A DNA stretch of 63,811 nucleotides, counting the filler, from Pseudomonadota bacterium (GTDB lineage Bacteria > Desulfobacterota > Desulfobacteria > Desulfobacterales > JBDRRP01): the NCBI GenBank assembly GCA_043825735.1. It is 7 parts of 7 records of this genome, joined end to end, with 100 filler letters (N's around TTAATTAATTAA, not from the genome) between each part and the next. Parts side by side here need not be neighbours in the genome. Positions count along the whole stretch, not along the records: positions 19,872 to 47,224 come from JBDRRP010000005.1; 6 more parts are not named here. One strand, written 5' to 3'. The translations under genes and the position numbers were made by a program. Below the pieces are notes generated by a model. It had not been told where the DNA came from. It did not search any database and saw only the letters and a list, made by a program, of their open reading frames with translations. Of this stretch, positions 16,831-47,463 are shown piece after piece; position 1 is the stretch's first letter, and each line of letters starts with the position of its first letter.

Positions 16831-16843
16831 TTGCGCTGCGCTT

Positions 16844-17155: not shown

Positions 17156-17191
17156 AAACACCGTGAGCATACTGACCAAAGGAGAAAAGTC

Positions 17192-18070: not shown

Positions 18071-18126
18071 CGTGCTTGACTGAGAAAAGAAGATGGGATG
18101 ACTGAATGAGAAGAAAAAATGCCAAG

Positions 18127-18215
18127 CACCACAGAGATCGCAGAGGGCACTGAGAAAAACAACAGCGTTTGATCTTGGTGTTAAACCCTCTGTGCGCTCC
18201 GTGTTCTCCGTGGTG
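18127..18215. repeat. Inverted 9-mer repeat element
   Basis: CACCACAGAGATCGCAGAG ... CTCCGTGTTCTCCGTGGTG. Confidence 0.8.
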
Positions 18216-18239
18216 ATCGCGGTTTTGTTTGCAAAGCCG

Positions 18240-19418
18240 TCAATGTTTGATTTCGTTCCAGTTCTCGACCAGGTGGTATTTGCCCTGTTTGATGACCGTA
18301 TAGAAGATATCTGAAAACCCTCGGTGATCTTCGGGGGTGTAGGAAATTTTCTCAGGAAGCCCGACATCCAGATTCGTCAGAGATTCTGCAGCCTTGATGA
18401 ACCCTTCCCGGGTAAGATTTGCGCCCGCTGATTGTAAAACCGCTACCAGCGTTTTAGCGTTCATGAATCCCTCGAGGCTGACGAAATTCGGCTCATCCCG
18501 GGGATAATATTTCTTCAGAATTTCCCGGTACTCGACAACACCGGGATAGGCCGACTCGGGGGGCGGCACCACCTGGGTCACGACGACGCCGTCACTGTCG
18601 CGGCCGACCCCCAATTGCCGTGCAAGCTCCTTGGCGCCGACAAAGCTGACGTTATGAAAATACGGGTTGTATCCGCTCCATTTGGCGGATCGAATGAAAT
18701 TGGCGCAGGGTTCATAGACGCCCACCATCACCACCGCTTCCGCCTGGGAGGCCACAATCGGTTTAAGTCCCTCCGAAATGCCGGGATTGCCTCTTTCATA
18801 GGTTCCTGTGGCGACCGGCAGGGTATTGTATTTTGCCAATGCCAGCTCGACCCCTTTTAAACCGGCCTTCCCATAAGCATCGTTCTGATAGAATACCGCG
18901 ATTTTCCGAGCGCCGAGATCATTCCAGAAGTGGTCGACAATGCCTGCCGTCTCCTCATAGTAAGACGCCCTGATGTTGAAAATATAGCGCTGCACTGGTT
19001 CCCGAAGTGCTTCCGCACCGGTGAACAGTCCCACCAGCGGGATTTTTTCCATTTCTACAATGGGGATGATTTTGACACTGGTCGGCGTTCCCACGTAACA
19101 GGTCAAGGCGAACACCTTGTCTTCATTGATCAGTTTCTCAGTATTTTTTATGCAAGACGGCGGGTCGTAACCATCATTGTAGGCAATGAGCTTGATTTTC
19201 CGGCCATGAATGCCACCCTGCTCATTCACATTCTGGATATAGGCCATCGCCCCGTGGAGCGTCTGGGTGCCGAGATACTGCGCGTGCCCTTCAAGCGCCA
19301 GCGATGACCCGATAAGTATCTCCGTGCCGGTAACCCCGGGATCAGCAACGGCTGCTGCTGCGGTCATTACCAATACCACCCACACTGCCATTGCCATTTT
19401 TATGCGAGGTCGTGTCAC
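18240..19418 (-). CDS. Branched-chain amino-acid ABC transporter substrate-binding protein (LivK-like)
   Basis: Signal peptide, GVTGTEILIG, GGIHGRKI, NIRASY, YQNDAYG; GTG start after GGAGGA. Confidence 0.85.
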   Translation of the reverse strand: MTRPRIKMAMAVWVVLVMTAAAAVADPGVTGTEILIGSSLALEGHAQYLGTQTLHGAMAYIQNVNEQGGIHGRKIKLIAYNDGYDPPSCIKNTEKLINEDKVFALTCYVGTPTSVKIIPIVEMEKIPLVGLFTGAEALREPVQRYIFNIRASYYEETAGIVDHFWNDLGARKIAVFYQNDAYGKAGLKGVELALAKYNTLPVATGTYERGNPGISEGLKPIVASQAEAVVMVGVYEPCANFIRSAKWSGYNPYFHNVSFVGAKELARQLGVGRDSDGVVVTQVVPPPESAYPGVVEYREILKKYYPRDEPNFVSLEGFMNAKTLVAVLQSAGANLTREGFIKAAESLTNLDVGLPEKISYTPEDHRGFSDIFYTVIKQGKYHLVENWNEIKH

Positions 19419-19552
19419 AGTGTCCTCCGTGTTGAAACAAGGTATAAATCCAACCACCGCTGTTAGATCGTTATTCTCTTTTACCCTCAACACCGGCATT
19501 TGGCAAAATGTTTTCGCCGCTGCTGTAGTGTCCATCGCTTTGAGATCGCTGT

Positions 19553-19590
19553 CCTTCGACTTCACTCAGTGCCGTGAACCTGTCGAACGG
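19553..19590. repeat. REP-like element, inverted near-copy of 24111-24148
   Basis: CCTTCGACTTCACTCAGTGCCGTGAACCTGTCGAACGG. Confidence 0.7.
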
Positions 19591-19771
19591 CAGCTTCGCA
19601 AGAGATTCGGACTTTTTACGGCACGGTCAACTTATTCCAAATTGCATTCAAGATGACTCTAATATCCAATCCCAGCCGGTCAGTGACTGCAGGAAACTCG
19701 GATTGCGCTTCAGCCGAGCCAGTCCCCTTGCTGCCTGCGCGATGGCTGCTCCGAGGGAACCGAACACACGG

Positions 19772-19871
19772 NNNNNNNNNNNNNNNNNNNNNNNNNNNNN
19801 NNNNNNNNNNNNNNNTTAATTAATTAANNNNNNNNNNNNNNNNNNNNNNNNNNNNNNNNNNNNNNNNNNNN
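19772..19871. other. Artificial contig-joining spacer
   Basis: N-run + TTAATTAATTAA + N-run. Confidence 0.99.
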
Positions 19872-20037
19872 GTACGGCTACAACGATCTTTTCATCGGCG
19901 TGCCGGTGAAGCTTGGGGCCGGCGGCGTTGAGCAGATCATCGAGATCACGCTGACCGCCGACGAAAAGGCCGCCCTGGACAAATCGGCCGCGGCGGTCGA
20001 AGGCCTCAAGGAAATCCTGAAAAAACTCGGTTATTAA
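19872..20037 (+). CDS. mdh: Malate dehydrogenase, 3' end only
   Basis: Translated by hand: [39 protein letters not shown]. Confidence 0.8.
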
Positions 20038-20054
20038 AGGGTGTTTCAAATCTC

Positions 20055-20093
20055 AAAAAAATGCGCTCCCGCCTTTTGCGGGAGCGCATTTTT
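20055..20093. terminator. Bidirectional terminator between mdh and uvrC
   Basis: A7-TGCGCTCCCGC-loop-GCGGGAGCGCA-T5. Confidence 0.9.
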
Positions 20094-20188
20094 ATGCTGA
20101 TGACAAGCACCGGCCATTGGCATTTGCCGATGACCCGGTCGGACACTGAGCCCAGGAACACATCAGTGCAATGCACTATGGCCAAGCG

Positions 20189-22060
20189 TTAATGCGTTGA
20201 GTTTGCATCGCATTCTTCAGTCGGGGGATCGTTAAAAAACGATCGCACCGCTTCAGCGGCCTTGAGGCTCATGCCCGGCAGTGCGGCCATCTCCGCCACT
20301 GTAGCCTTCCGGATCGCCGCGATTTCTCTGAAATGGGTCAGAAGAATGCGCCTTCGGGTCGCGCCGATACCCGGAATGGGATCAAGGACCGAGCGGAGGG
20401 TGTCGGCGCGTCGGCGCTGACGGTGGTAGCCTACGGCATACCGGTGCGTCTCGTCCCGTATCTTCTGTAAAAACAGCAATACGTCGCCGTCACGTCCGAA
20501 ATTCACCGGGTTGCTGCGTCCGGGCAGATAGATCTTGTCCTGGGTGTCACCCCATCGTTCGTCTTTTTTCGCGATTCCCGCCACTCCGAAGCGTCCCACC
20601 AGATCCATCGATGCGATCACCGCCATGGCCACATTGAGTTGCCCTTTGCCGCCGTCAAGCAGCAGCAGGTCTGGAAACGGGGTGTCGTCCCCTGCCCCGC
20701 CGCCGATGAACCGCCGGGTGAGAACTTCGGCCATGGTGGCATAGTCATCGGCCCCGGTCACCGATCGGATGCGGTAGCGCCGGTACATGGCCTTGGCCGG
20801 CCGGCCGTTTTCAAATACCACCAAACCGGCCACCGGTGCGGTCCCCATGAGGTTGGAATTGTCGATGCATTCGATACGGTGTGGGAACTCGCTCAGATGT
20901 AAACGTTTTTGAAGTCGGAAGAGCAGATCGGTGTCCGTGTCCGCAGACATCTGGACCTCTTTGAGCCGATCGGCGGCATTCTGCAGCGCCAATGCCAAAA
21001 GCCGCACTTTTTCTCCCCGTTTGGGCTGATAAATCCGAACCGCATGTCCTGCCGTTTCCCGCAGTTCGGCTTCGATAAGGAGGGTCTCCGCTGTCGTGAC
21101 GGGCAGAAGAATTTCCTGGGGTATCCGAGCGGAATCCGTATAGTGCTGGCGGATAAAAGCACCGACGAGCTCCGGATCGGTGGCCAGTGTTTCCTTTACC
21201 GCCGCATGCCGGGATCCGATGAGATAGCCGTTTCGAACCTGAAGCAGCGTGACCACCGTGACCGTCTCGCTGGCGGCCACTCCCAGGGCATCGCGATCAG
21301 TGAAATCCTGGGTGACCACGACCTGACGCTCGAGGGTTTTTTCCATTGCGGCGATCCTGTCTCTGAGCACCGCCGCCTGCTCGTAGCATTGGTCCGCCGC
21401 CGCCTTCTGCATGTCGGCGCGCATTTCCGTGAGCAGTTGCGGCGTACGGCCGCTGAGAAACAGGACGACCTGCCGGACGATGCCGGCGTAGGCATCTTGT
21501 GCTACCGGCAAGCAGCAGGGACCAAGGCAAGCGCCCATTTGATGATGGAGACAGGGGCGGGTTCGCCGGTCGAATTCCGCATTCCGACATTTTCTCAGCT
21601 TGAAGGTGCTGTCGATGAACTTGAGGGTCTGGCGCACCGCATGGGCCGACGCGAACGGACCGAAATGCCGGTTGCCGTCTTTTCGCGGCGTTCGGACAAT
21701 GCTCAGCCGCGGGTAGGCGTGGACCATCTCCAAACGCAGCGACGGGTAACGCTTGTCGTCCTTGAGGACAACGTTATAACGCGGCCGATGCCTTTTTATC
21801 AGGGTCTGCTCAAGGATGAGGGCTTCATTTTCGCTTGCCGTGGCGATGGTCTCCACATCCGCGATGCGCCGCACCAGAACCCCGGTCTTGACGTCCAGCT
21901 GATCGATAGGCTTAGCGTAGCTGGTCAGTCTTTTCTTGAGGTTGCGGGCCTTGCCCACATAAATGATCCGCCCCTGCCGATCCTTCATCAGGTAGACACC
22001 TGGCGAAGGGCCGACCCGCTGAATCTTTTCCGCCAGTGATGTGGTTTCCGGTTCAGTCAT
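20189..22060 (-). CDS. uvrC: Excinuclease ABC subunit C
   Basis: GIY-YIG domain ([14 protein letters not shown]), [16 protein letters not shown]-terminal HhH. Confidence 0.97.
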
Positions 22061-37512: not shown

Positions 37513-37650
37513 ATGCGCCGTCCTGCTGACGACAGGGCATGCATCCAAGGCATGATTTCAAATAGTAATCTTATGGTGAGTGCCTGGGATGCCGATGAAC
37601 TTGTCGGTATTGCCCGCAGCATGACTGATTTTCATTACGCTTGTTATCTG
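37513..37650 (+). pseudogene. Internal fragment of a GNAT acetyltransferase
   Basis: GMISNSNL.VSAWD..LVGIARSMTDFHYACYL; both ends missing. Confidence 0.65.
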
Positions 37651-37686
37651 CTTCAAAATGAGTTCGATTACAATGGAATATCAAAA

Positions 37687-38109
37687 ATGCCAATTAAGCT
37701 TAAAAATCTGGATGTCGGTTTAGGCGGTGCGATTGTCGGCAAAGGAATTGTTACCGGTGAAGAAATTATTGAAGCAAACAATGACCTTTTGTCTCTCAAA
37801 GAAAAACTGAAGAAGACCAAATACTGCATTATAGACTATTCCGACGCTACCCAATATGATGTATCGACCCCTGAAGTCGAAATCATAGCGGCCCAGGATA
37901 GTGAGATCGCAAAATATATTCCGGAGTACATTGTAGCTGTTATCGCGCCAAACAATCTTGAATTTGGTGTCTCACGAATGTGGGAGTCCGTCGTTAAAGT
38001 CAAAGGCCTTAATTGGGATACCATGGTTTTTAAAAATAGGGACGATGCTGAAAAATGGGTAAAACAGAAATTTAAAGAGAAATATAATATTGATATAACC
38101 ATGAAATGA
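37687..38109 (+). CDS. AT-rich hypothetical protein (STAS/SEC14-like)
   Basis: IIDYS..AVIA..FGVSRMWE..F..RDDAEKW pattern. Confidence 0.6.
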   Translation: MPIKLKNLDVGLGGAIVGKGIVTGEEIIEANNDLLSLKEKLKKTKYCIIDYSDATQYDVSTPEVEIIAAQDSEIAKYIPEYIVAVIAPNNLEFGVSRMWESVVKVKGLNWDTMVFKNRDDAEKWVKQKFKEKYNIDITMK

Positions 38110-38199
38110 AAGCCGCTCGGAACTGCTGCCGGCCGAAAAAATACTGAATATCGCCCGATGCCGTTACTTGGCCCCTTGCCGCTGTTAAGCCGTATAGGC

Positions 38200-38232
38200 G
38201 CAACCCTTGAACCCTCGAAACCTTGAACCCTT
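38200..38232. repeat. Short 8-mer tandem repeat (ACCCTTGA-like)
   Basis: AACCCTTGAACCCTCGAAACCTTGAACCCTT. Confidence 0.6.
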
Positions 38233-38279
38233 TTCTCCAACTAAATTGGAGAAGAGCCGAAAAAGGATCTATCATAACG

Positions 38280-38448
38280 ATGGGATTCATCCACCGACTG
38301 ACCAACGACCACCGCATGATGCGGTTGCTGTTGAACTTCTTCCCGCCCTATCTGGGCGCCGGCATCCGGGTGCGCCGGATATCTCCCGATTTTCGTGAAC
38401 TGGACGTGAGCATGGGCCTTCACTGGTTCAACCGAAACTATGTGGGAA
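38280..38448 (+). pseudogene. 5' half of a DUF4442 (hot-dog thioesterase) gene, interrupted by the integrated element
   Basis: NFFPPYLGAGIRV..HWFNRNYVG, then an abrupt switch to AT-rich DNA where THFGG is expected. Confidence 0.85.
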
Positions 38449-40033
38449 AACTATTAGTGAAAGATGCCGTTAATTTTCCAGACTCTTGCCACTTCTGAAA
38501 CAGAGTAGCATTAAATGAAAACGGAACATCTATTGACCATCGCTTCTCCTTTCCACCTTCAAATTGCACGACACAAGGGCCGCTAAGATTCGCTTCAACG
38601 AAGGTTTTCTTATCAGCTTCACTTAAAGCCCCAAGTTCATCAAGCATCTGTCTAATCTGTTTCTTCCCATTCTTTCTCTGATAGTCTAATAAAGCCTTTT
38701 CTTTAGTTGCGCTTTCTTTGAACTGTAATAGCCGCTGATCGTTATCTTGAATCTGATTTTTTAATGCAATAATTTCTCCTTCAATTTGATTAAACTTTTC
38801 AATGAATGATGTTTGATTGAATTCCTGAGATTCTAAAAGCTCATATAGATTTTCTTTCGTTGTCTCCTTTTTTTTCAATGTAGATTTAAGGGCTTTAATC
38901 TTCGCCTCTTGCTGCGTAATCTGGTCACTAATGTCTGACTCTGAAATCAACTTGTCTGGATTTAAAAGCATCCTGGAAGTCAGCTTCATCCAAACATAGC
39001 TTTCAACATCATCAGCAGGGAGAAATGACAGTTCACAACGTTTTTTTCCATCTGCCTCTAATTTCTTTTTAGATGCGTGTTTGTAATAGCAGCAATAATA
39101 CCGCTTATATTCACCTTTCTTTTTTAATTCGTTTGCCCTGACCTTTGCGCCACAGACTCCACAGCGCATAATATCTCTGCAAAAATATGATTGTATGCGC
39201 TGTGTATTCTTTGCGGAGATGGTATTCGTTCTAACTCGCTCTAATATCATGTCATAACGCTCTTGAGTTATCAGGGGAGTCATTTCATACGATAATACAT
39301 AGTCTTCTTTGTTTTCTTTGTCGCCCTTGTAATAGCCAAGATAAAGCGGATTTTTGACAGCGTTTCTAACGCCTACATCACTATATGATTTATTTCTAAT
39401 GTCATATAGACCTTGCTTTAGTTCTTTATTAATAACGGCTGCAACATCTAAAAACGCCAGTCCTTCATCTATATATAGTGACACCATGCGCTTGTATAAC
39501 CTGGCCCCTTCTGGCTCTATATCAAATTGCTTTTCTACTTTGTTCCAGACATAGCCAAGTGGTGAACGTCCTACGAATATCTTTTTCTCTTTTCTAAGTG
39601 CATCCCTCCTGCCTTGTGTCCTTTGTTTAATGACTGCTCTTTCCCATTGTGCGATGATTGCAAAAATCCCTAAGACAAGATCGCTTGTTAAATCACCGCC
39701 CATCGTGTTGGTGCGTTGTTTGATGAAATAGACACCTATACCTTTGTCTTTCAATTCATCTATTGTATTGATACATTCAATGAAGTTTCTGGCGAATCTG
39801 TCCAAATCACGGCAATAGATTAATTTAATATCGTTTTCTTTTACATAGTCAAGCATAACAATAAATTCTGTTCGTTTAACCATATTGCCGCCAGATTTGC
39901 CAGCATCCTTAAAGACTTTTACAAGTTCATTTCGATCAAGTTTAGATTGATTGATAATATCTTCTTCTTGAGATTCGATGCGCTCTTGTGAATTGTCCAT
40001 TGTCGATGTTCTACAATAGCCGACGACTTTCAT
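38438..40033 (-). CDS. Large serine recombinase (integrase)
   Basis: YCRTST catalytic Ser, D.GKSG, DLDRFAR, PLGY recombinase domain, CGVC..YYCC zinc ribbon, coiled coil. Confidence 0.95.
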   Translation of the reverse strand: MKVVGYCRTSTMDNSQERIESQEEDIINQSKLDRNELVKVFKDAGKSGGNMVKRTEFIVMLDYVKENDIKLIYCRDLDRFARNFIECINTIDELKDKGIGVYFIKQRTNTMGGDLTSDLVLGIFAIIAQWERAVIKQRTQGRRDALRKEKKIFVGRSPLGYVWNKVEKQFDIEPEGARLYKRMVSLYIDEGLAFLDVAAVINKELKQGLYDIRNKSYSDVGVRNAVKNPLYLGYYKGDKENKEDYVLSYEMTPLITQERYDMILERVRTNTISAKNTQRIQSYFCRDIMRCGVCGAKVRANELKKKGEYKRYYCCYYKHASKKKLEADGKKRCELSFLPADDVESYVWMKLTSRMLLNPDKLISESDISDQITQQEAKIKALKSTLKKKETTKENLYELLESQEFNQTSFIEKFNQIEGEIIALKNQIQDNDQRLLQFKESATKEKALLDYQRKNGKKQIRQMLDELGALSEADKKTFVEANLSGPCVVQFEGGKEKRWSIDVPFSFNATLFQKWQESGKLTASFTNSFPT

Positions 40034-40203
40034 TTCTTATCCTCCAGTTTTTGATTAATTTGACGAAGTTGCTCTGACTGATATTCTGGAGAAGATTGAT
40101 CTTTGTTCTTTTTATAAATGCCTTCGCCCATACCGAGTGCAAAAAATCCAAGTGCTAATAGAGCAGCAAGAATTATAACAATGTCGCCTCTGTCATTGTT
40201 CAT
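40030..40203 (-). CDS. Small single-TM protein (57 aa) coupled to the integrase
   Basis: Translated by hand: MNNDRGDIVIILAALLALGFFALG...; AAGGAG SD; ATGA overlap. Confidence 0.65.
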   Translation of the reverse strand: MNNDRGDIVIILAALLALGFFALGMGEGIYKKNKDQSSPEYQSEQLRQINQKLEDKK

Positions 40204-40305
40204 GTTGTGCTCCTTTCGATTAACAAGATATTTTGCAATAACAGTTCTTTATATAACATAGTTAGCCTTAAATGTAAACAGGTTTTTACCAACCACCTAA
40301 ACGAA

Positions 40306-40347
40306 ACAAAAAAGCCCATATTCAATTAAGAATATGAGCTTTTTTGT
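40306..40347. terminator. Bidirectional terminator
   Basis: ACAAAAAAGCCCATATTC-loop-GAATATGAGCTTTTTTGT. Confidence 0.8.
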
Positions 40348-40374
40348 AAATGCTGTATTTTATAAACTTACTTG

Positions 40375-40608
40375 TTATTTACCCCAACAGCATGGACAAC
40401 CCTTAAACGGTCGATAAAGTTGATGCCTGAAATAAGTTCTGCACCTTCTACAATAATAAATTGCTTCATATCGTGGCTGTGTTTTGACCGCTAACAAATT
40501 TTCATTTTCAAGCGGTATCTGTAAAAACTTCTCATTAATAAATTGATTGTTATACGGTTCAGCCTTTAAAATCCCAAGTTCAAATTCCCATTGTTTGTCA
40601 TGCCTCAT
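40375..40608 (-). CDS. Small zinc-ribbon protein
   Basis: CRRC...CPCC. Confidence 0.65.
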   Translation of the reverse strand: MRHDKQWEFELGILKAEPYNNQFINEKFLQIPLENENLLAVKTQPRYEAIYYCRRCRTYFRHQLYRPFKGCPCCWGK

Positions 40609-40609
40609 T

Positions 40610-41224
40610 TTATAGGCCCTTCATTGACCGAACAAAATCATCAACACCTAAAATCCGGCCCTTTCTGTCTTTCAGAACGTCAGCTAAAAGAACCTCATCT
40701 TCAGCCGTCCATTCTTCGCCTTTTGTATGTGCTTCGAAAAGGTTAGAAACTGTAGCTGCCGAGGCCACGATGTCGCCGCTTCTAAGTTGATCAACATCAA
40801 TTACAGATTCTTGACCTGTCTTTTCATCCCTATACATTTTAACTCTTGCATTAATGCTATTACCAACGCCTTGTGGCTGCAATCTTGCTATGTCTTTTAA
40901 TAGACCGAAACTTGATTCTCGACAGTGTAAATCAGCATAAATTTTATCCCCACTTCTTTGAACATTCTTGAAAATCCCGAGCCAGTCCCTAACGTCCCTA
41001 ACGCCTCCGCGTTCCTTACGCTCTGAGGCTGCTGGATGATTATAGAATGATTTTAAGCCTTCTGTTAAACGTGCAATACTTGCAATTGCTTTGTCTGAAT
41101 ATTCGTACCCGTTTTTGGATTTTCTAAACCCAAATACACAAACTTTTTTGATAATCTTATTTGCTTCGTCAATACCTACTGATTCAAACGTATTCTCATA
41201 ATTTTCTGTAATCTCTTTTATCAT
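40610..41224 (-). CDS. Phage prohead (capsid maturation) protease-like protein
   Basis: SKNGYEYS, YNHP (His), R.VRD..G, GNSINA (Ser), SGDIVASAAT..LFE; AAGGAGG SD. Confidence 0.75.
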   Translation of the reverse strand: MIKEITENYENTFESVGIDEANKIIKKVCVFGFRKSKNGYEYSDKAIASIARLTEGLKSFYNHPAASERKERGGVRDVRDWLGIFKNVQRSGDKIYADLHCRESSFGLLKDIARLQPQGVGNSINARVKMYRDEKTGQESVIDVDQLRSGDIVASAATVSNLFEAHTKGEEWTAEDEVLLADVLKDRKGRILGVDDFVRSMKGL

Positions 41225-41238
41225 ATATTTATTCCTCC

Positions 41239-41901
41239 TTATCCTGCTAATCCCCATTTCTTTAGTAATGATTCCTTTTCTTTTCTCTTCTTTTCGTGAA
41301 GTCTTTTTTTGTCTTCATCAAGTTGCGCCTGAATACGTCCTGGGATCAGTGCTCTTTCTGTTTGTTGTCGCAATCTATGATCAAGTATGAATTTAATCTT
41401 TGGAAGCTTTTCACCTTTTACCGTTAAATCTTCACTGCTATCTTGAACCCAACCTTTAGCTCTAAAAATATCTGTTAGAACCTGCCGACGCTTCGGAAAT
41501 ATTCGATCAATTTCTAACCTGCTCAGATCCTGCTTTTCTCCAAATTCAGTTTCAGCGGTTGCGAATAGATCTAAGTATCGACAAACTTTATCTTCAGTAT
41601 CCATATCTAAGGTTATAAACTTGTCACTGAACAAATATAGCTTTAAGCGGTTCTGGCCATATACAATATGATCTCTCATAAACTGAGCAAGTTTCTTTTC
41701 ATTTGGATAATCGGCAACAAGTTCTCTTTTTGAAAAATAGGTTTTGCCATTTGGCATTATCCATTTTGCAGTCACTTTTCTTTCGATCATGTTTAAAGCT
41801 TTCGCCATTTTTTCAAGATTAGTTTTTTTCGACTTAATTTCTTTTAACAAAAGCTCGCTATAGAGCGTGTTTTTCAAAGCTATCCATAATTGTGAATCCA
41901 T
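41239..41901 (-). CDS. Hypothetical protein (220 aa)
   Basis: AAAGGA SD; co-oriented with the protease gene. Confidence 0.75.
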   Translation of the reverse strand: MDSQLWIALKNTLYSELLLKEIKSKKTNLEKMAKALNMIERKVTAKWIMPNGKTYFSKRELVADYPNEKKLAQFMRDHIVYGQNRLKLYLFSDKFITLDMDTEDKVCRYLDLFATAETEFGEKQDLSRLEIDRIFPKRRQVLTDIFRAKGWVQDSSEDLTVKGEKLPKIKFILDHRLRQQTERALIPGRIQAQLDEDKKRLHEKKRKEKESLLKKWGLAG

Positions 41902-41931
41902 ATATTTTTCCTTTCTATATTTGTAAGTAAA

Positions 41932-42140
41932 TGTGCTACGCACCAGGCCCGGGATTAAAGATATGTAGAAATACCTGATTCACTGGTGCGTAGCACACGT
42001 TGTATTCGTGTCAGTAGACGGCAATATGAATGATTTAACAAAACTGGACCCGTCTACTGACTGGTTGAAGATTGTCCAGTTCTGCGAGTGCGAACACGAT
42101 GGTAAAGCTTATGGCGGTTATTGTCGCTCCGTGTTCGCAC
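41932..42140 (-). ncRNA. Candidate structured RNA: three perfect stems (15, 12, 11 bp) with 28-36-nt loops
   Basis: Inverted repeats 41932-41946/41983-41997, 42010-42021/42050-42061 and 42088-42098/42130-42140; strand inferred from neighbouring genes. Confidence 0.5.
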
Positions 42141-42438
42141 ATAACTAAAATCCATCTGCGGGTGAAAAGTCCGGTGAATAATAGCTACTTTAGAGTGAGC
42201 GTAACCGCGCATAATTGTTTTCTATTTATTTTATATTATTTTTTATTTGAATTCTCAAAAAATTATATCATTCTACACAAAACTTACTGCCCTACACCCA
42301 CCTTTCGCTGAAAAGTTTCAGAAATACCCGCGCCCATCTACATATCCTGTAGACTCAAAGAACTATCAATTTCCAGGGCCAAAGAGTTTCTCAGTTTTAA
42401 TGATATAAATGCATTATTAAGCACTATAAAAATATAGC

Positions 42439-42509
42439 TAAGTTACTGATACCATTAGAAGTTGACATAAATAGTTATTATCAGTCATTTTAGTAATTTC
42501 AATAGCTTA
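42439..42509. promoter_or_regulatory. dif-like Xer site flanked by IHF-like sites
   Basis: AGTTGACATAA-ATAGTTA-TTATCAGTCAT; TAAGTTACTGATA and TTTCAATAGCTTA match or nearly match WATCARNNNNTTR. Confidence 0.55.
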
Positions 42510-42762
42510 TAGCGTCATTCTGTTTTGCATATTCCGACTTGGGCACTTGTAACAATGTTACAAAATTATTACCTTGAATTTATGTCTTAAGATACTCTTC
42601 CATTAATGCTGTGCTTCTGTGTCATAATTGTTTTGTATTATCGTTGTGAAATCAAATATCTGCATGTAAGCAAAAGCATGACTTATCGCTCCACTCTGTT
42701 CCGTGAATTATTGCATGCATCTTGAACTATAGAAGATAGTTGCAATACTTGTAAATGACCCA

Positions 42763-43002
42763 TCAGATCTGAATATTACACTTGTACGGGATATCTATAA
42801 TATCAAGCGTTCCATTTTCATCAATATATATAGAGACAGCTTTCTGATTACTGTCAAAAAGAATGATATGATGCTGCCTTCCCTTCTTGTTCATAAAGAA
42901 TCTAAAATCATATATATGATAGTCTTCTGATAATTTGTTCTTTAAAATATTATCTAAATTGAATATTTGTTTTAATTGTTCTTCCGTTTCTTTATATTTC
43001 AA
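42763..43002 (-). CDS. Hypothetical protein
   Basis: ORF track; TTG start overlapping the upstream ORF. Confidence 0.55.
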   Translation of the reverse strand: MKYKETEEQLKQIFNLDNILKNKLSEDYHIYDFRFFMNKKGRQHHIILFDSNQKAVSIYIDENGTLDIIDIPYKCNIQI

Positions 43003-43132
43003 AGTTTTTCCCTTTCAGAATTCCAATGATTAACTTTACCACGTCTTTTAAGATTCCTAAGAGTAAATTGTATTCCTGACATAGTTTATTATATTCTTTG
43101 TTTGCTTCTTCTAAATCTTTAAATCCATCCAT
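42992..43132 (-). CDS. Small hypothetical protein (46 aa)
   Basis: Translated by hand: MDGFKDLEEANKEY...; AGGAGG SD. Confidence 0.55.
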   Translation of the reverse strand: MDGFKDLEEANKEYNKLCQEYNLLLGILKDVVKLIIGILKGKNFEI

Positions 43133-43134
43133 AA

Positions 43135-43314
43135 CTACATATCCTCCTGATTAGGTGCTTTGAGTTCATTCAAAATCTTTTCCAGTAAATGTATAATACG
43201 CTCATCCTGAAGCCATAAATTTACGAGCATTGGGTCCGCAACGGTGGGATTATTTAGAAACCAATGCTTGCCATATTTCTTTTCTATAAAATCTGTTTCT
43301 TTTGTTTCGATCAT
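43135..43314 (-). CDS. Small hypothetical protein (59 aa)
   Basis: Translated by hand: MIETKETDFIEKKYG...; GGAGGT SD. Confidence 0.6.
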   Translation of the reverse strand: MIETKETDFIEKKYGKHWFLNNPTVADPMLVNLWLQDERIIHLLEKILNELKAPNQEDM

Positions 43315-43316
43315 TT

Positions 43317-43514
43317 TTACACCTCCCTTTTTAAAAGTTCTGATTCGTCCATCTGAAAATAGTTCACAAGTTGTCGCACCTGATAACTTGTCGGTGGCCT
43401 TTTGTTATTGATAATGAAATTCAGGGCCGTCCTGCTCATTTTCAGTTCTTTTGCCAGTTTTGTCTGTGTTAATCCTCTTTTCTTCAATATATAAAATAAC
43501 GCTGTTTTTCGCAT
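43317..43514 (-). CDS. XRE/Cro-type HTH regulator
   Basis: KKRGLTQTKLAKELKMSRTALNFIINNKR.P. Confidence 0.85.
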   Translation of the reverse strand: MRKTALFYILKKRGLTQTKLAKELKMSRTALNFIINNKRPPTSYQVRQLVNYFQMDESELLKREV

Positions 43515-43748
43515 AAATACCCTTTCTTTATATTTGATGTATACTTGCATATGCTTTTTCAATAATAATCGATTCTTGAGCGTAATATGACATTAAAAGT
43601 GTGTTCCTGAGATAAGATCAAGCGTGACGCGAGGCTATATTTCTGCCCCAAATAGTATTTACTCCCATAATGTTGTTCTTTCTTATAATGTTTGTTTTGT
43701 TTAATATAAGATTTTATATAGTAAAGAATTATAAAGCAGTTAAAAAAT

Positions 43749-43984
43749 GATTCGCGTAGCGAATCTGGTTTGAGAACTAATCCCGAAGGGATTAGTGATC
43801 TGTAAAATTTGCTTTTTTATCTTTTTTAATATCTTTAATATATCTTTAATAAGTATCTTTAATAATATCTATATAAAGTGTAGTTTTTAAACTATTTCTC
43901 CGTAGCTTATTTGCTTTTCTACCGTAGCAAATAAGCTACGGCAGAATAGCTTATTTGCTTTTCTACCGTAGCTTATTTGCTACG
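43749..43984. promoter_or_regulatory. Putative replication origin: four iterons, AT-rich repeats and two hairpins
   Basis: TAGCTTATTTGCT at 43903, 43926 (inverted), 43947 and 43969; TATCTTTAATA x3; hairpins 43749-43765 and 43776-43796. Confidence 0.75.
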
Positions 43985-43989
43985 AAAAA

Positions 43990-44439
43990 CTAAGATACTT
44001 TTTTCAAAACTTTCTTAAAATCTTCCATCCAACACAGTGTAAAACGATGATATGAAGAATGAGTATTTCCGTTTTGAATATGATTTGAATGATGTTTAAC
44101 TAAACCAGCATTTACTAATTCAGTTCGCATTTTTTTTAATGATACTTCAGAAACATTGATAGCTTTTGCAATATTTTCATAAGTATCTGTCCACTGTCCA
44201 TAATTTTCACTGTCAATATTAAATTGCGCCCTCTTATTTAAATACAGTAATAATTTAAGAGCACCCGCTGACTTCAACTTCATAATCTGTTCTTCCATAA
44301 AATGTGGCATCCTTTGAAATAGAAAGTTATTTTTCAATTTTGAATATTCTTTTTTACACTCTGATAAATACTCGCACTTGAAACATTTTTTGGAACCAAA
44401 TAATTTGCACTCACCGACTTCTTGTTTTTCTTTAGCCAT
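43990..44439 (-). CDS. Putative replication initiator (Cys-rich N-terminus + winged HTH)
   Basis: LKSAGALKLLLYL..TYENIAKAINVSEVSLKK..ELVNAGLV; stops next to the iterons. Confidence 0.65.
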   Translation of the reverse strand: MAKEKQEVGECKLFGSKKCFKCEYLSECKKEYSKLKNNFLFQRMPHFMEEQIMKLKSAGALKLLLYLNKRAQFNIDSENYGQWTDTYENIAKAINVSEVSLKKMRTELVNAGLVKHHSNHIQNGNTHSSYHRFTLCWMEDFKKVLKKVS

Positions 44440-44816
44440 TAAGATATCCCCTCTGTTTTGTTCAACTTCGACAAGTAGACATATCAAAGAAAGAGAGGAG
44501 GACGTTCCTGATATGTCTACTTGTCTAATGACGCCATGCCTGACGTAGTTGAAAGTTGTTAGTTAAAAAACTTGGTATCTATATGATAGTAAAATATTTC
44601 ATTCGATCAATTTTACTTCTGTTACATTTAGATAATAGAATTTTTCATCGTTTCAAGTTTTGCCTATATATTTAGATAATAAAGTTTTCGGCATTTTCTT
44701 TGTAAATGCTTTACTATCAATGCTCTTAACGACTATGCTAATTAAACGTCTCTCATCTCTAATTTAATTATAATATATTCTTTTTAGTTTTAAAAAAATA
44801 TATGTAACATTTGAAT

Positions 44817-44861
44817 AAAAAAATGCTGCGGCTATCATAAAGACAACCGCAGCATTTTTTT
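44817..44861. terminator. Bidirectional terminator
   Basis: A7-TGCTGCGG-loop-CCGCAGCA-T7. Confidence 0.8.
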
Positions 44862-44874
44862 GCGGAAAGTTGTT

Positions 44875-45168
44875 TTATTTATTTTTCTTTATACATTTCT
44901 TAATTATTTCAAAAAACTTACTATTATCGTATATTGGAATATGGACAGATCTATAAAATTTCTTTGTAACGGTCATATCAATATACTTGTTAACATCAAT
45001 ATCAGAATATTCTATATTGTTATTATTTGCGTAAGATTCTAACTCTTCTCTTATCTCACATGCGATTTGATAGACTTTACCTTTATAAGGCCTACCGTAT
45101 TCTAAATCATCAATAATATTTTTTATATCTTCGATTGGATCTGAAATAACATTAACAATTTTCTTCAT
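44875..45168 (-). CDS. Hypothetical protein
   Basis: ORF track; coupled to the DUF3102 gene. Confidence 0.6.
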   Translation of the reverse strand: MKKIVNVISDPIEDIKNIIDDLEYGRPYKGKVYQIACEIREELESYANNNNIEYSDIDVNKYIDMTVTKKFYRSVHIPIYDNSKFFEIIKKCIKKNK

Positions 45169-45170
45169 AA

Positions 45171-45776
45171 TTATTTATCCTTTCTTTCTTGTCTGTTGTC
45201 TTCGTATTCGGACCACATTTCATTTATCTGGTTGTTTAGCTTTTCAAGAATCTCTTTCATCTCAAAAACTTTATCAGAGATCTTTGTAAATTCATTTACG
45301 TTTTCACTTTTCAATTCAAATTTCGCAATCTGCTTTTCAGCTTTTTTAATTACTGGCTTTGTTTGTTCGACTTGCTCAATAAATGAGGGCCAACTGAATT
45401 TATTGTATTTGCGTTTTGGAGGTGTCTCAGGTTCTTTTGGTTCATCTTTCTTTGTAACAGCCTTTGGTGTTACAGATTTCTTGCGCTTTGAATTTATAAA
45501 GTCGGTTAAATTCAAATCACTCTGTTCAAGTTCTTCAGCACTTTCGAACGCTTTAATGTAAGTTATTGCTGTAGCTTGTGTAAAATTACAATTAGCTTTT
45601 AACCACTTCCCCCAGTTCCCGTGGCCCAAATCATCTTTTATTGGCTTTAGAAGCGAACCGAGTTCTATAGCTACAAATTTCTTTTCAGTTCTGATCGCTT
45701 CGATTTCTTCATCTTTTTTCTTATACTGTGAATGTAGTTCATTGATCGTTTTAACAACTTCATCATATTTTTGCAT
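45171..45776 (-). CDS. DUF3102-like phage protein
   Basis: ELG.LL..IK..LGHGNWGKWL..NCNF...TA..YIK. Confidence 0.75.
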   Translation of the reverse strand: MQKYDEVVKTINELHSQYKKKDEEIEAIRTEKKFVAIELGSLLKPIKDDLGHGNWGKWLKANCNFTQATAITYIKAFESAEELEQSDLNLTDFINSKRKKSVTPKAVTKKDEPKEPETPPKRKYNKFSWPSFIEQVEQTKPVIKKAEKQIAKFELKSENVNEFTKISDKVFEMKEILEKLNNQINEMWSEYEDNRQERKDK

Positions 45777-46182
45777 AATTAAAATCTCCTACAAATTTAA
45801 AAATAACTTTTCCAATTTTAAATTTCACACATTACATTAATTGACAGTTGCGATTAAACTTCTTTTCACGTCCCGCTCACTGGCTTCATTAAAGAGTTAT
45901 TGCGGGTTAGTCAGGGACAACACCCTGCCGAAATCCCAGGACACTTAAGCCGATTGGATTTCTAACGGTTTTTCCGGATACCGCTTAACCTTCTAATTGT
46001 GTCATGGTTCGCTGCTACCTCTTTACGTTAAAAGTTTTAATAAAATAAATATTTCTAAAACGCTGACCATTACATTACCTATTCCCTATGTAACATATTT
46101 AAATATTCGGCGTTTAACGTTCTATTTACAAATAACTGATATTGTGGCATAATTATTTTAATATCCGCTACCAGAACGGACC

Positions 46183-46707
46183 ATGAAAAACAAATATCTC
46201 AGGAATTCTAAGATCTCAGAGTTCCAGTTCAGGAAACTGGTGCGACTGTTTTGTGAGCGACCGCTTTATGGGTCAAGTCACGGATATGTTGAGGAAATTT
46301 CCCGGGATAGGATTAAGTTGAACGAAAAAACAGTATACCGGTATTTTGGTTTGATCCGCTCCACAATTGTTCAGTACGTCGAGGAAGAAATGATAGGGCA
46401 GTCAGATGATGCGGTTAAGAATCAACTAACCACATTGTATAAAAATGATACTCATTTCCAGCATCTTGTAGATGTAAGAATTACAAACGATAATATTATT
46501 TCAGATAGCTACATTTATAAATTATTTTGTGAACTTTACTTCCATTACATTTATACTAAGCAGCAACCTGATACTGAATCGGGTGTAAATTCAAAATATC
46601 TAAGACTACTTCATATATTTAAAGAAACCAGGAAAAATCGTGATTGGGACGCAAAGGCTAAGTTTATTGAATTTGCGGAAGAATATTTTAAAAGGGCGGA
46701 GGATTGA
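46183..46707 (+). CDS. Divergent protein with an IS1595-like N-terminal HTH; putative regulator
   Basis: MKNKYLRNSKISEFQFRKLVRLF..LNEKTVYRYFGLIR; no DDE domain follows. Confidence 0.55.
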   Translation: MKNKYLRNSKISEFQFRKLVRLFCERPLYGSSHGYVEEISRDRIKLNEKTVYRYFGLIRSTIVQYVEEEMIGQSDDAVKNQLTTLYKNDTHFQHLVDVRITNDNIISDSYIYKLFCELYFHYIYTKQQPDTESGVNSKYLRLLHIFKETRKNRDWDAKAKFIEFAEEYFKRAED

Positions 46708-46871
46708 CTTAAATCGAACCACATAGACAGACACTCGTCAAGCCCTGATCGTTGATCCTGGGCTATCTGAGAGCGATGTTCATACCCATTAGGACTTAGA
46801 ATCTGCTTGACATACTATTTTTAGGGGAGGATGATTAAGCATTTACAGAAATCACACTAATTGGGGGGGGT

Positions 46872-47117
46872 ATGGAATTTTTTAAAGAACGTTTTGAGCA
46901 GCACGAGTTCCACAAAAGTTTTATCGATGTCAAAACTATAATTGAAGAACTACTCACTATAGAGAACGATGATGAAATAGTCTCAAGTCTTTTGAGACTT
47001 GTCAAAGTATTAAGTTTCGGAAATACAATTTTAGAACAAATTGATCCAGATATTTTTCCTGTTAAGTCGCTTGATAATATGAATAACTCAACTTTCGGGG
47101 TTGAGCTTGGGCAGTAA
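46872..47117 (+). pseudogene. Cargo ORF, probably truncated near 47087 by an IS end
   Basis: The ORF runs into CTCAACTTTCGGGGTTGAG about 140 bp before the contig break. Confidence 0.45.
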
Positions 47118-47224
47118 AAATATGACCTATCTTGCTGATTTCATGAAGAAATAAGTTGAAGAGCCCAATCCGTTGATTTATAGTGGATTTGCGACAATTC
47201 ACAATAATATCAACAGGAAAGGGC

Positions 47225-47324
47225 NNNNNNNNNNNNNNNNNNNNNNNNNNNNNNNNNNNNNNNNNNNNTTAATTAATTAANNNNNNNNNNNNNNNNNNNN
47301 NNNNNNNNNNNNNNNNNNNNNNNN
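47225..47324. other. Artificial contig-joining spacer
   Basis: N-run + TTAATTAATTAA + N-run. Confidence 0.99.
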
Positions 47325-47463
47325 CTGGATTGCCGCCAAGGCTACCTTGGCTTTGAACTCGGCACTGTGCGTTTTTCGTCTCTTCCCCATTGTCAGATCC
47401 TCCTTGGTTGAAGTGGTCTGACTCTTAGCTTAGCACATTGTCCGAATTTCGGGGTCCACCGCA
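47325..47463 (-). mobile_element. Left end of an IS3-family element (IRL and start of OrfA)
   Basis: TGCGGTGGACCCCGAAATTCGGACA terminus; ATG at 47390 gives MGKRRKTHSAEFKAKVALAAIQ. Confidence 0.85.

Follow-up and report, generated by a model that had tools for sequence, protein, structure and literature searches.

A complete 11.3-kb integrative element with a serine recombinase and a lone prohead protease, tentatively a phage satellite, in a Desulfobacterales genome

Introduction

Can a small AT-rich island that carries a large serine recombinase, an origin-like region and a single capsid protease gene be a parasite of phages? The question is raised by a locus in a 63,811-nt stretch of DNA from a Desulfobacterales genome (the window), which is made up of several contigs with N spacers between them. 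A sequence-only reading had suggested that the locus may represent an undescribed class of phage satellites.

Results

Extent and borders of the element

In 1-kb bins, GC content is 0.28-0.42 across 38-47 kb of the window versus 0.53-0.65 in the flanks, and the whole-genome value is 0.575, which confirms the AT-rich island described earlier. The island runs off contig C5 at position 47224 because an insertion sequence (IS) begins at 47087; position 47224 is the end of the contig, not of the element, and bases 47226-47325 are an N spacer.

46872..47086, plus strand: first 71-72 codons of an interrupted ORF (remainder at C108 84485-83376)
47087..47224, plus strand: left end of an IS4-family IS of 1,529 bp; the contig ends inside it

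The IS has 14-bp perfect terminal inverted repeats, a 7-bp target-site duplication (TSD; TGAATAA at 47080-47086), and a transposase matching NF049925 (E 1.3e-159); as a Logan unitig it is 1,531 bp long, with a depth of 73. Three left and three right IS junctions could be paired uniquely by their 6-7-bp TSDs. Removal of the IS and one TSD copy yields an in-frame 439-aa ORF with a coiled coil and two transmembrane segments (TM-like at residues 244-292 of the C-terminal piece) that matches phrog_29215, a profile with no assigned function (E 1.9e-9). Matching TSDs and the in-frame continuation of the ORF thus identify contig C108 as the carrier of the missing right arm (84484 down to ~81862). Beyond the IS, this arm contains the rest of the 439-aa ORF, a 256-aa TM/coiled-coil ORF, a 159-aa DUF4442 copy, and attR. 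The contig with the 3' half of the DUF4442 gene, through which the sequence-only reading had hoped to size the element, is this same C108, and the full element measures ~11,275 bp (GC 0.34), plus the 1,529-bp IS. On C108 as assembled, the right arm is joined to a non-cognate flank, so that in the real genome the two arms of the element may lie physically apart. The data support one discrete, complete integrative mobile element of ~11.3 kb, now with a 1.5-kb IS.

Integration into a DUF4442 gene

38280..38446, plus strand: 5' portion of the DUF4442 gene of the host (hotdog fold) and attL; reads ...FNRNYVG, then element DNA
38438..40033, minus strand: left-end integrase of the element, a large serine recombinase of 531 aa (Pfam, PHROG)
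C108 81548-81850, minus strand: 3' part of the host DUF4442 gene (THFGGSLYAMTDPFF...) and attR
C108 81967-82446, separately oriented: intact spare DUF4442 copy, 159 aa, ~115 bp inside attR

The integrase matches Resolvase (E 1.9e-27), Recombinase (3.8e-7), and Zn_ribbon_recom (1.4e-7) in Pfam and the integrase family phrog_95 (E 2.1e-71); its NCBIfam matches, XisF and CcrC, are under their cut-offs. The att sites share a GG core (38445-38446), and the two DUF4442 halves, when joined by script, give a 156-aa ORF. AttL is spanned by C5 and also by a Logan contig that was assembled independently from the same run (38265-43857). The reconstructed attP shows the imperfect dyad symmetry usual for sites of serine integrases (CACTAACAG ... 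CTATTAGTG). As far as DNA sequence can tell, these borders show that the large serine recombinase put the element at the GG core inside the host DUF4442 gene. The integrase is intact, as are the two att sites. Only one run, probably the source of the element DNA and kept as contigs, holds this DNA; its assembled contigs contain neither an attP nor an empty-site junction, and thus no sign of excision of the kind that the attP-spanning reads proposed by the earlier reading would give.

The spare DUF4442 copy is identical to the host gene at 126 of 156 residues (81%); in the best of 41 matching genomes (400 genomes of the same order), identity is 61% or less. At its own site, the spare copy has a GC instead of a GG core. 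We infer that it offsets the cost of insertion, and that the altered core should shield it from self-insertion.

Gene content and replication module

40030..40203, minus strand: single-pass membrane peptide, 57 aa, hydrophobic at residues 5-29; its stop overlaps the integrase start
40306..40347, minus strand: terminator-like hairpin, 18-pair stem plus T run
40375..40608, minus strand: zinc-ribbon protein, 77 aa (ORF; CxxC ... CPCC)
40610..41257, minus strand: protease domain of the prohead (capsid maturation) type, standing alone, 215 aa (204 from the second Met), by fold
41239..41943, minus strand: ORFan, 234 aa (probably 220 from the Met at 41901)
41930..42230, minus strand: cluster of three strong hairpins, GC 0.42-0.44, slightly above its surroundings
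42763..43314, minus strand: three small ORFs of 79, 46, and 59 aa
43317..43562, minus strand: XRE/Cro-type HTH regulator, 81 aa (HTH_3 E 3.4e-10; phrog_2967 and phrog_8 ~2e-10)
43818..43984, no strand: origin-like region directly 3' of the initiator-like gene
43990..44487, minus strand: initiator-like winged-helix protein, 165 aa (149 from the second Met), by PHROG
44875..45168, minus strand: 97-aa ORF, weak phrog_18999 match (E 1.3e-3)
45171..45776, minus strand: DUF3102 protein, 201 aa, first of the leftward string (PF11300 E 3.4e-9; phrog_15609 1.7e-10)
45777..46182, no strand: intergenic region from which the leftward and rightward strings diverge, from the ORF layout
46183..46707, plus strand: 174-aa protein, first gene of the rightward string

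ORF calls, Pfam, and PHROG placed the genes of the sequence-only reading where it had put them, with the exception of one label: the supposed divergent HTH gene (46183..46707) has no match in Pfam, PHROG, NCBIfam, or PADLOC, and the 174-aa product has no viral relatives. No family was found for the membrane peptide in Pfam or PHROG, for the zinc-ribbon protein in Pfam, PHROG, NCBIfam, or PADLOC, or, at significance, for the three small ORFs in Pfam or PHROG. The proteins of the right arm that combine membrane segments and coiled coils are weakly similar to coiled-coil parts of ZorA and LeoB, two defence proteins (PADLOC E 1e-6 to 7e-4), a similarity that is probably compositional. A scan for promoters and terminators was not above chance (37 promoter-like sites versus 34.8 expected, six terminator-like versus 4.7); it includes a promoter-like site at 46125-46153 (plus strand) in the divergent region and the hairpin that separates the zinc-ribbon gene from the peptide/integrase pair.

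The hairpin cluster of the earlier reading proved to be real. Its minimum free energy is -92.6 versus -66.7 +/- 4.6 for shuffled sequences (z -5.6; 0 of 100 shuffles as stable), and it contains perfect 15-nt and 12-nt inverted repeats; folding of the next 540 nt is unremarkable (z +0.8). No Rfam family matched at gathering score. A packaging site, an oriT-like site, and a structured RNA are the candidates for its role.

The iterons reported beside the Rep-like gene are likewise genuine repeat arrays: 12-bp AT-rich repeats (4.4 units, 43818-43870) are followed by 22-bp, partly inverted iteron-like repeats (four units, 43895-43981). The adjacent protein matches the N-terminal part only of phrog_186 (E 5.4e-8), phrog_270 (6.5e-6), and phrog_428 (8.6e-6), and Pfam HTH_36 under its cut-off (E 4.6e-4); its predicted winged helix is similar to the DNA-binding domain at the N terminus of DnaD-like loaders and of phage proteins that initiate replication. 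It has no relatives in a word-based search, in phages, or among 72,556 plasmids. Replication would start from the 22-bp iterons bound by this protein, with helicase and primase borrowed from the host or a phage. The XRE-type regulator and the divergent promoter region would steer the long leftward string, which ends in the protease operon, followed by the integrase.

A phage-derived prohead protease

The 215-aa protein matches no family in Pfam (S77 included), PHROG, NCBIfam, or PADLOC, yet its earlier description as prohead-protease-like is upheld by its fold. With an AF2 model (pLDDT 89), a Foldseek search of PDB returned T4 gp21 (5JBL) at E 2.4e-6, the next match being at E 0.019; VIA-align gave 5JBL_A a Z of 12.2 (rmsd 3.2, 145 residues aligned) and the next match, VZV protease, a Z of 4.8. 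Sequence identity to gp21 is 14-16%. There were 137 matches in BFVD at E<=1e-3, and those with names among the best 50 were mostly prohead or capsid maturation proteases; the atlas score to Peptidase_S77 clusters is 0.98. Across 46 sequences, neither H74 nor S134 varies. Judged by its modelled structure, the protein is a real prohead protease of the gp21 fold with an intact His/Ser pair.

A profile search found 3,495 relatives, and neighborhoods were sampled at 39 loci from 34 distinct contigs. TerL, portal, MuF, decoration, or capsid genes lie beside the protease at 31 of the 39. The place of the relatives is between a MuF-like gene and the capsid gene. Among complete relatives (ORF not cut by a contig end), 29 of 30 are long (315-530 aa). 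Nearly all close relatives are the N-terminal half of protease-scaffold fusions within phage head modules, where the C-terminal half is taken to be the scaffold domain. No element protein, the ORFan included, matches a profile of this domain; the ORFan finds only itself among 5.8 billion proteins (best atlas score 0.75). Homologues confined to complete prophages had been named as evidence against a satellite, and the survey comes close to that: the 31 loci with recognizable neighbors are head modules, but one locus, L038, is not: its 234-aa protease lies away from head genes, next to a gene for an excisionase-type HTH protein. Another short form, P0002, has 211 aa. In a quick tree, the element protease nests (aLRT 94) with 445-aa and 211-aa forms; the enclosing starred clade has 60 rows, most of them long forms. 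The protease of the resident Mu-like prophage has no detectable kinship to it (hhalign probability 0.4%).

The ORFan overlaps the protease start by 19 nt, and one base separates the protease stop from the zinc-ribbon start, a tight packing that argues for a working operon rather than debris. Besides the protease, the 17 ORFs contain no virion genes recognizable by Pfam, PHROGs, NCBIfam, or PADLOC. The earlier statement that capsid, portal, terminase, and tail genes are absent therefore extends to the recovered right arm, which does not hold the head and tail module expected of an ordinary or decayed prophage. Pfam and PHROG searches revealed neither TerS nor a cos/pac match, and likewise no AlpA, no primase, and no gene that would redirect capsid size. 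Similarity to related phage contigs is limited, at the DNA level, to the protease gene, which was also the only match in a whole-genome tblastn with 14 head-module proteins from two such contigs. These comparisons show a protease gene that is, by its apparent descent, phage-derived and the sole morphogenesis gene of the element.

Search for related elements

No protease-bearing second copy was present in 400 genomes of the order, the integrase reached at best 33% identity in 400 genomes of the phylum, with no related element, and scans of IMG/VR, genomes, and metagenomes turned up no relatives of the element. The search for elements sharing its gene set, suggested by the sequence-only reading, thus returned none with two or more of the genes, and a class of satellites cannot be built on this single copy.

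Discussion

The element has its own integrase, a likely origin, and a lone head-maturation protease, and therefore looks like a putative parasite of phages. The best explanation of its gene content, to which we give slightly less than an even chance, is a complete integrative element that acts as a phage satellite or phage-interfering island; helper-dependent packaging is plausible. The helper would be a phage with a TerL-portal-MuF-protease::scaffold-capsid head module, and the protease would tamper with its prohead maturation during infection, perhaps assisted by the zinc-ribbon protein and by the 220-aa ORFan that overlaps it. Capsids of the helper may then take up the element DNA. The cargo gene already broken by the IS counts against such a role.

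An integrated plasmid-like or mobilizable element, which makes no use of phage capsids and moves, for example, in vesicles or by conjugative mobilization from an oriT-like hairpin cluster, is a rather unlikely alternative. The protease would then be cargo with a defence role: it would protect the host by disturbing how incoming phages mature their capsids, instead of hijacking those phages. An iteron origin with a small initiator-like protein, the strong hairpin cluster, and the lack of a recognized packaging gene or site fit this account, as does the weak, probably compositional ZorA/LeoB likeness of the right-arm proteins. However, Pfam and NCBIfam scans of all ORFs detect no relaxase, no coupling protein, and no further conjugation domain, PADLOC models match neither the protease nor its neighbors, and the initiator-like protein has no plasmid relative in the set searched.

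It is improbable that the element is a temperate-phage remnant that lost nearly all structural genes through deletion and by chance retained its integrase and early genes along with a shortened protease gene: the protease gene does resemble a fusion reduced to its 5' half, its relatives are found almost only in head modules, 820 bp (41944-42762) are without long ORFs, and IS erosion has begun, but no fragment of other head genes was found by tblastn, the integrase and both att sites are intact, the ORFs are all open and tightly packed, the catalytic residues are kept, and short protease forms recur.

Comparison with known systems

Like the gene-disrupting tRNA/tmRNA islands that restore their targets (Islander, PMC4383910), the element carries sequence compensating for the split gene. 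As far as the Islander description goes, it differs in that the cut end is not regenerated and a whole, 81% identical copy is supplied instead. Its protease shares the fold of T4 gp21 (PDB 5JBL; MEROPS S77), with little sequence identity. Tailed phages have protease-scaffold fusion proteins of the P2 gpO and Mu gpI type; the protease studied here stands alone in a non-phage element and is missing the C-terminal half present in 29 of the 30 complete relatives.

PICIs, in which serine-protease head genes are occasional according to de Sousa et al. 2023 (PMC10085698), and SaPIs resemble the element in several respects: they are of similar size, have a terminal integrase and a divergent regulatory region, possess their own replication module, and carry a few phage-derived morphogenesis genes short of a full virion set. 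The element differs from PICIs in having no AlpA/Stl-type regulator, primase-helicase, or TerS, in its serine rather than tyrosine integrase, and in that one gene string holds the replication genes and ends with the integrase. In the SatelliteFinder account (PMC10085698), the two integrase types are treated as exchangeable.

PLEs, satellites of ICP1 in Vibrio cholerae, share with the element a terminal large serine recombinase, an initiator accompanied by iterons, and a layout with most genes on a single strand; like it, they have no capsid, portal, or terminase genes. They are ~18 kb versus ~11.3 kb. The initiator of PLEs is of the RepA_N type, and they insert into superintegron repeats, whereas the element has no RepA_N match in Pfam and targets a protein-coding gene. 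No PLE is known to have a prohead protease.

The premise that serine recombinases are confined to PLEs no longer holds: in marine VEIME module 3, 91% encode one, together with plasmid-like replication genes, according to Eppley et al. 2022 (PMC9618062), where monomers range from <5 to 16.8 kb. Module 3 is similarly small and chromosomal, with no major capsid gene. The likeness is one of description: VEIMEs are defined by concatemers inside virions, the element is known here from sequence, their hosts are marine Cyanobacteria and Verrucomicrobia, and the proteases mentioned are 'periplasmic serine proteases' of another module, not of the gp21 fold. VEIME module 3 and PLEs are thus published satellites that share the broad plan of the element, and, since serine-integrase and protease-bearing satellites are already in print, it does not constitute a new class.

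Extent of the element and its completion across an insertion sequence

The draft genome from which the window is drawn consists of 160 contigs (6.8 Mb, mean GC 0.575). In contig C5, which occupies window positions 19872–47224, GC falls to 0.28–0.42 across ca. 38.4–47.2 kb, compared with 0.53–0.65 in the flanks. The AT-rich island described in the sequence-only reading is thus present, with all the ORFs listed there, while the right limit implied by its "at least 8.7 kb" does not stand. Positions 47226–47325 are an N spacer with the linker TTAATTAATTAA, a joint between unrelated contigs, and the sequence beyond it does not adjoin the island in the genome; the limit is therefore that of the contig only.

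The last 141 bases of C5, which also open C6 and occur within C108, form the left end of a 1,529-bp insertion sequence (IS) with the full set of IS4-family features: a DDE transposase (NF049925, E = 1.3e-159, above the cut-off), perfect 14-bp terminal inverted repeats, and target site duplications (TSDs) of 6–7 bp at three copies. The depth of the corresponding Logan unitig (1,531 bp) is 73, compared with 9–22 in its surroundings, and the IS is therefore multi-copy. At least four copies exist in the genome, located at C108 84485–86013 (positions 5486–7014 of L008, the fetched region of this contig) and at the ends of C5, C6, C64, C66, and C107. Left junctions of the IS are found in C5, C6, and C108 and right junctions in C108, C107, C66, and C64, and their TSDs could be paired in only one way: C5 with the right flank in C108 (TGAATAA), C6 with C107 (TTGTAA), and the left flank in C108 with C66 (TTATTA), the right junction of C64 having no partner among the three left ones. 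Removal of the IS and one TSD copy brought the ORF at 46872–47086 into frame with a 370-codon ORF of C108, giving 439 aa. The matching TSD and the restored frame thus establish the original order as C5–IS–C108, the latter read from 84484 downward. As judged by the TSDs, the right arm in C108 as assembled is joined to a non-cognate flank; this join reflects either the path that the assembly took through a repeat (a chimera) or a real IS-mediated rearrangement. The element is therefore also a worked case of completion across an IS-broken draft assembly. The right arm contains the features listed below.

Features of the right arm, in order from the IS (contig C108)
First after the IS: rest of the 439-aa ORF, with a coiled coil and two TM segments
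After the 439-aa ORF: 256-aa ORF (u256), with an N-terminal TM segment and a coiled coil
81967–82446 (L008 2968–3447), strand opposite to the 439-aa and 256-aa ORFs: intact DUF4442 gene, 159 aa
Ca. 115 bp past the intact DUF4442 copy: 3' half of the DUF4442 gene (THFGGSLYAMTDPFF...), then the GC-rich host old-yellow-enzyme gene

A weak match of u256 to Rz-like spanins (E = 4e-4) was taken as coiled-coil noise. A head/tail module in the missing right part had been named in advance as the result that would speak against a satellite; PHROGs and Pfam scans of the right arm revealed no gene for a head, tail, portal, or terminase protein. Without the IS, the element is ca. 11,275 bp long, with a GC content of 0.343; with it, the reconstruction measures 12.8 kb.

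Other AT-rich islands (GC 0.25–0.45) are present in the same genome in C57 (1–6500), C84 (last 3 kb), C69 (53600–58100), and C11 (1–4500), several of them at contig ends; none of these four has sequence in common with the element. To the left of the element, a separate second AT-rich stretch (37513–38109, GC 0.36–0.45) holds an ORF that starts as a GC-rich GNAT-like fragment and continues with 140 AT-rich codons without a family match; the stretch may be what another insertion left behind. Between this ORF and the host DUF4442 gene lies a REP/MITE-like repeat of ~150 bp (38112–38263), which has dozens of genome copies at 72–95% identity and a Logan depth of 316, compared with 22 beside it.

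Attachment sites and integrase

The 5' half of the host DUF4442 gene, beside the integrase gene, ends ...FNRNYVG, and joining it to the 3' half yields a 156-aa ORF. The left junction, attL, reads ...ATGTG-GG-AAAACTATTAGTG, and the right junction, attR, reads ...CACTAACAGAAAC-GG-CACCCAC. In the attP that follows from these junctions, GG is flanked by arms of imperfect dyad symmetry, CACTAACAG and CTATTAGTG, which agree at 8 of 9 positions; attB has the arms GTGGG and CCCAC around the same GG. An imperfect dyad around a 2-bp core is the known pattern of serine-integrase sites. By sequence comparison, the sites reconstructed here are of this type, being short, imperfectly dyadic, with a shared 2-bp core, and without long direct repeats. 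The integrase itself was correctly recognized as a large serine recombinase. It matches phrog_95 (E = 2e-71) and has the domain composition of this group: a resolvase catalytic domain (Resolvase, PF00239, E = 1.9e-27, residues 3–150), a recombinase domain (Recombinase, PF07508, E = 3.8e-7, residues 174–269), and a zinc beta-ribbon (Zn_ribbon_recom, PF13408, E = 1.4e-7, residues 287–351).

The element was found in one DNA sequencing run, which may be its source; no RNA run containing it was listed. The contigs of the DNA run contain no attP or attB junction and no loose end at attL. Contig-mean depths in this run are 22 in the flank and 13 and 9 in the element, values that we leave uninterpreted for DNA so rich in AT.

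A spare copy of the target gene

The intact DUF4442 gene of the element and the reconstituted host gene agree in 126 of 156 residues (81%). This makes the copy closer to the host gene than to any homologue in 400 genomes of the order, 41 of which had a match, the best at 61% identity or less; a genome of the same genus had no match at E ≤ 1e-40. The GC3 value of the element copy is 0.51, that of the host gene is 0.74, and those of the other element genes are 0.30–0.36. At the position of attB, the copy reads GTGGCCACCCAT and the host gene reads GTGGGCACCCAC, so that the central dinucleotide differs. Serine integrases should not recombine sites whose central dinucleotides differ, and recombination at the copy should therefore be prevented. 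On these sequences, the spare copy may compensate for the disrupted gene; with its altered core, it would be a neat, testable case in which a mobile element makes good the cost of inserting itself.

Genes and repeats of the left arm

The left-arm features referred to here are as follows.

Features of the left arm (window positions)
40610–41257 (−): 215-aa ORF, protease
41239–41943 (−): 220/234-aa ORF (ORFan)
41930–42230: hairpin cluster
43818–43870: 4.4 copies of an AT-rich 12-mer
43895–43981: four 22-bp repeats
43990–44487 (−): initiator-like protein
45171–45776 (−): DUF3102 protein
46183–46707 (+): 174-aa protein

Family scans agreed with the XRE regulator and DUF3102 assignments made on first reading. 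The gene described there as Rep-like with iterons encodes a small winged-helix protein; its matches (E = 5e-8 to 9e-6) are to phage replication initiators and DnaD-like loaders, in their N-terminal DNA-binding part. Both repeat arrays adjoin this gene, as had been claimed; the likeness to an initiator is limited to the N-terminal part. When the initiator-like and DUF3102 proteins were compared with PDB sequences, only chance-level matches were obtained, and the small ORFs and the ORFan had no family match in Pfam, PHROGs, NCBIfam, or PADLOC. The hairpin cluster seen earlier is real in terms of folding energy (z = −5.6 compared with shuffled sequences), while the adjoining 540 nt fold no better than shuffles. 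Rfam gave nothing near a gathering score, and a generic promoter/terminator scan performed at chance level. The hairpin cluster could be an oriT, as carried by integrative mobilizable elements; no relaxase domain was detected with Pfam or NCBIfam.

A prohead protease domain without its partner

The 215-aa protein has no match in Pfam, PHROGs, NCBIfam, or PADLOC. The Pfam Peptidase_S77 HMM does not recognize it and is matched by only 2 of 46 relatives, weakly (best E = 4e-4), and a profile of its family gave 0 matches to PDB sequences at E ≤ 10. Though the sequence libraries are silent, the earlier description of the gene as prohead-protease-like is borne out by its predicted fold. An AlphaFold2 model (pLDDT 89) retrieved T4 gp21 (5JBL) from the PDB with Foldseek at E = 2.4e-6, and nothing else below 0.01. 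VIA-align superposed the model on 5JBL with Z = 12.2 (rmsd 3.2, 145 residues aligned), herpesvirus proteases being next (Z = 4.8 and 3.8); the predicted model thus has the gp21/assemblin fold. In the ESM Atlas, the protein scores 0.98 with Peptidase_S77 clusters, and the named proteins among 50 listed of its 137 BFVD matches (E ≤ 1e-3) are mostly prohead or capsid maturation proteases. His74 and Ser134, a candidate catalytic pair, are invariant in 46 aligned relatives. Together, these data identify the 215-aa protein as a real prohead protease domain.

At E ≤ 1e-3, a four-sequence profile retrieved 3,495 relatives. The fetched relatives, at 31–59% identity, comprise 39 loci on 34 distinct contigs (17 loci from IMG/VR, 2 from one-per-species genomes, and 20 from metagenomes); 9 of the ORFs run off the contig end and 30 end inside the contig. 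With one exception, these 30 ORFs are 315–530 aa long, and the protease of the element corresponds to their N-terminal half. On two full contigs, PHROGs gave the gene order large terminase, portal, MuF-like head morphogenesis protein, protease ORF, decoration-like proteins, HK97-type capsid, and at least one such head-module neighbor is present at 31 of the 39 loci. Of the eight loci without a head neighbor, seven lie on contigs no longer than 2.4 kb. In a quick tree, the protease of the element groups (aLRT 94) with proteins of 445 aa and 211 aa, inside a well-supported clade of 60 rows, 49 of which are long forms. The gene context of the relatives and the tree thus indicate that the ancestor of the gene was a phage protease with a C-terminal half fused to it, and that this half was lost. 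We take the C-terminal half of the long forms to be a scaffold domain. Its profile, built from 41 phage proteins, matched no protein of the element; the ORFan, considered as a candidate for the missing scaffold half, was rejected at E = 12.

The remaining locus without a head gene, L038 (a 4.7-kb metagenome contig), has a short form of 234 aa (1346–2050) flanked by small unknown ORFs and an excisionase-type HTH gene (HTH_17, E = 5e-7). It may be a second satellite-like element, and has no other gene in common with the one described here. L038 also carries a 195-aa unknown ORF without a Pfam match, by eye a possible winged-helix protein.

Relatives of the element and potential helpers

None of the other 16 element proteins is present in the 39 loci, and a blastn search of the left arm against all of them for a shared packaging site found similarity inside the protease gene only. 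In a sample of 400 genomes of the host's order, the protease was not present, and in 400 genomes of the phylum the integrase had its best match at 33% identity. Phage integrases are 25–26% identical to it among the 15 records listed and stay below 60% in all of the 380 records that matched. In IMG/VR, scans revealed no relative of the ORFan, the initiator-like protein, the DUF3102 protein, the integrase, or the 174-aa protein, apart from weak 44-residue DUF3102-domain matches at two loci (L030 and L031). No match was obtained by tblastn for the initiator-like protein in plasmids and phages or for the DUF3102 protein in phages, and in a word-based search of 5.8 billion proteins the ORFan and the initiator-like protein found only themselves.

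Among the protease relatives, five IMG/VR contigs of 16.2–16.8 kb (L010, L014, L018, L021, and L025) belong to an uncultured phage lineage with a conserved TerL–portal–MuF–protease::scaffold–decoration–capsid block; in L025, an HNH/homing-endonuclease-like ORF separates the portal gene from the MuF gene. The head genes of this related lineage are not in the source genome. That genome contains a Mu-like prophage (C103, about 4800–22000; fetched as L069) with TerS, TerL, portal, MuF, Mu-like_Pro, gpT, tape measure, and tail genes, including a tail fiber gene, as well as P22-like head genes (C23; L070) comprising a TerL, scaffold, and coat set. Both are possible helpers; no link of either to the element was found, and hhalign of the protease family with the protease of the C103 prophage gave a probability of 0.4%.

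Discussion and comparison with known satellites

The anatomy of the element is secure: it integrates by a serine recombinase, contains one phage-derived morphogenesis gene and no virion set, and has an origin-like array. In its layout, the element corresponds to a phage satellite or phage-interfering island, whose helper-induced excision, replication, and packaging are putative. It might just as well be a plasmid-like integrative element carrying anti-phage cargo; a prophage remnant is less likely. In the satellite reading, serine-integrase satellites would no longer be limited to Vibrio and marine plankton but would include one from a GC-rich groundwater bacterium, and a free protease domain from a protease–scaffold fusion would be a little-studied route of hijacking or interference. 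Should the satellite reading fail, what remains is a small, orphan integrative element, of modest interest. A broader proposal, possible though not probable, is that a whole class of phage satellites with a serine integrase and an iteron replicon exists in anaerobic groundwater bacteria, the element being the first one described. Such satellites would take over or sabotage helper capsid maturation via a scaffold-less copy of the helper's protease–scaffold gene, and would pay for insertion into a host gene with a spare copy whose recombination core is altered.

Like phage-inducible chromosomal islands (PICIs), the element falls in the range of ~10–15 kb (11,275 bp), has an integrase at one end, and lacks structural and lysis genes. 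It differs from them in its regulatory and replication genes: instead of an AlpA/Stl-type regulator and a primase–replicase module, its 17 ORFs contain no AlpA, primase, or helicase domain (Pfam, PHROGs, NCBIfam). An occasional serine-protease head gene is described for PICIs in PMC10085698. The capsid, portal, large terminase, and head–tail connectors that cfPICIs possess are absent from both arms, and the Sid/Psu/Delta and alpha primase–helicase genes of P4-like satellites are absent from the element (PHROGs, Pfam). The initiator of PLEs is of the RepA_N type; the element has no RepA_N match, the best Pfam match of its initiator-like protein being HTH_36 (E = 4.6e-4). A large serine recombinase is common to the element and PLEs (PMC9618062, PMC10085698). 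The element also corresponds to module 3 of the VEIMEs, described in PMC9618062 as mostly encoding serine recombinases, together with replication genes of plasmid type, and as lacking a capsid gene; the element shares these features and a monomer size below 17 kb. VEIMEs are defined by their occurrence as concatemers in virions. The suggestion that the element may represent an undescribed satellite class is partly supported: it holds for the satellite-like layout, the integrase, the protease, and the missing virion set, but not for novelty of class, since published satellites share the plan. The element, a single copy for which no relatives were found, is of a kind already known, that of serine-integrase satellite-like elements, and what is new in it is the scaffold-less protease together with the spare, core-altered target gene.
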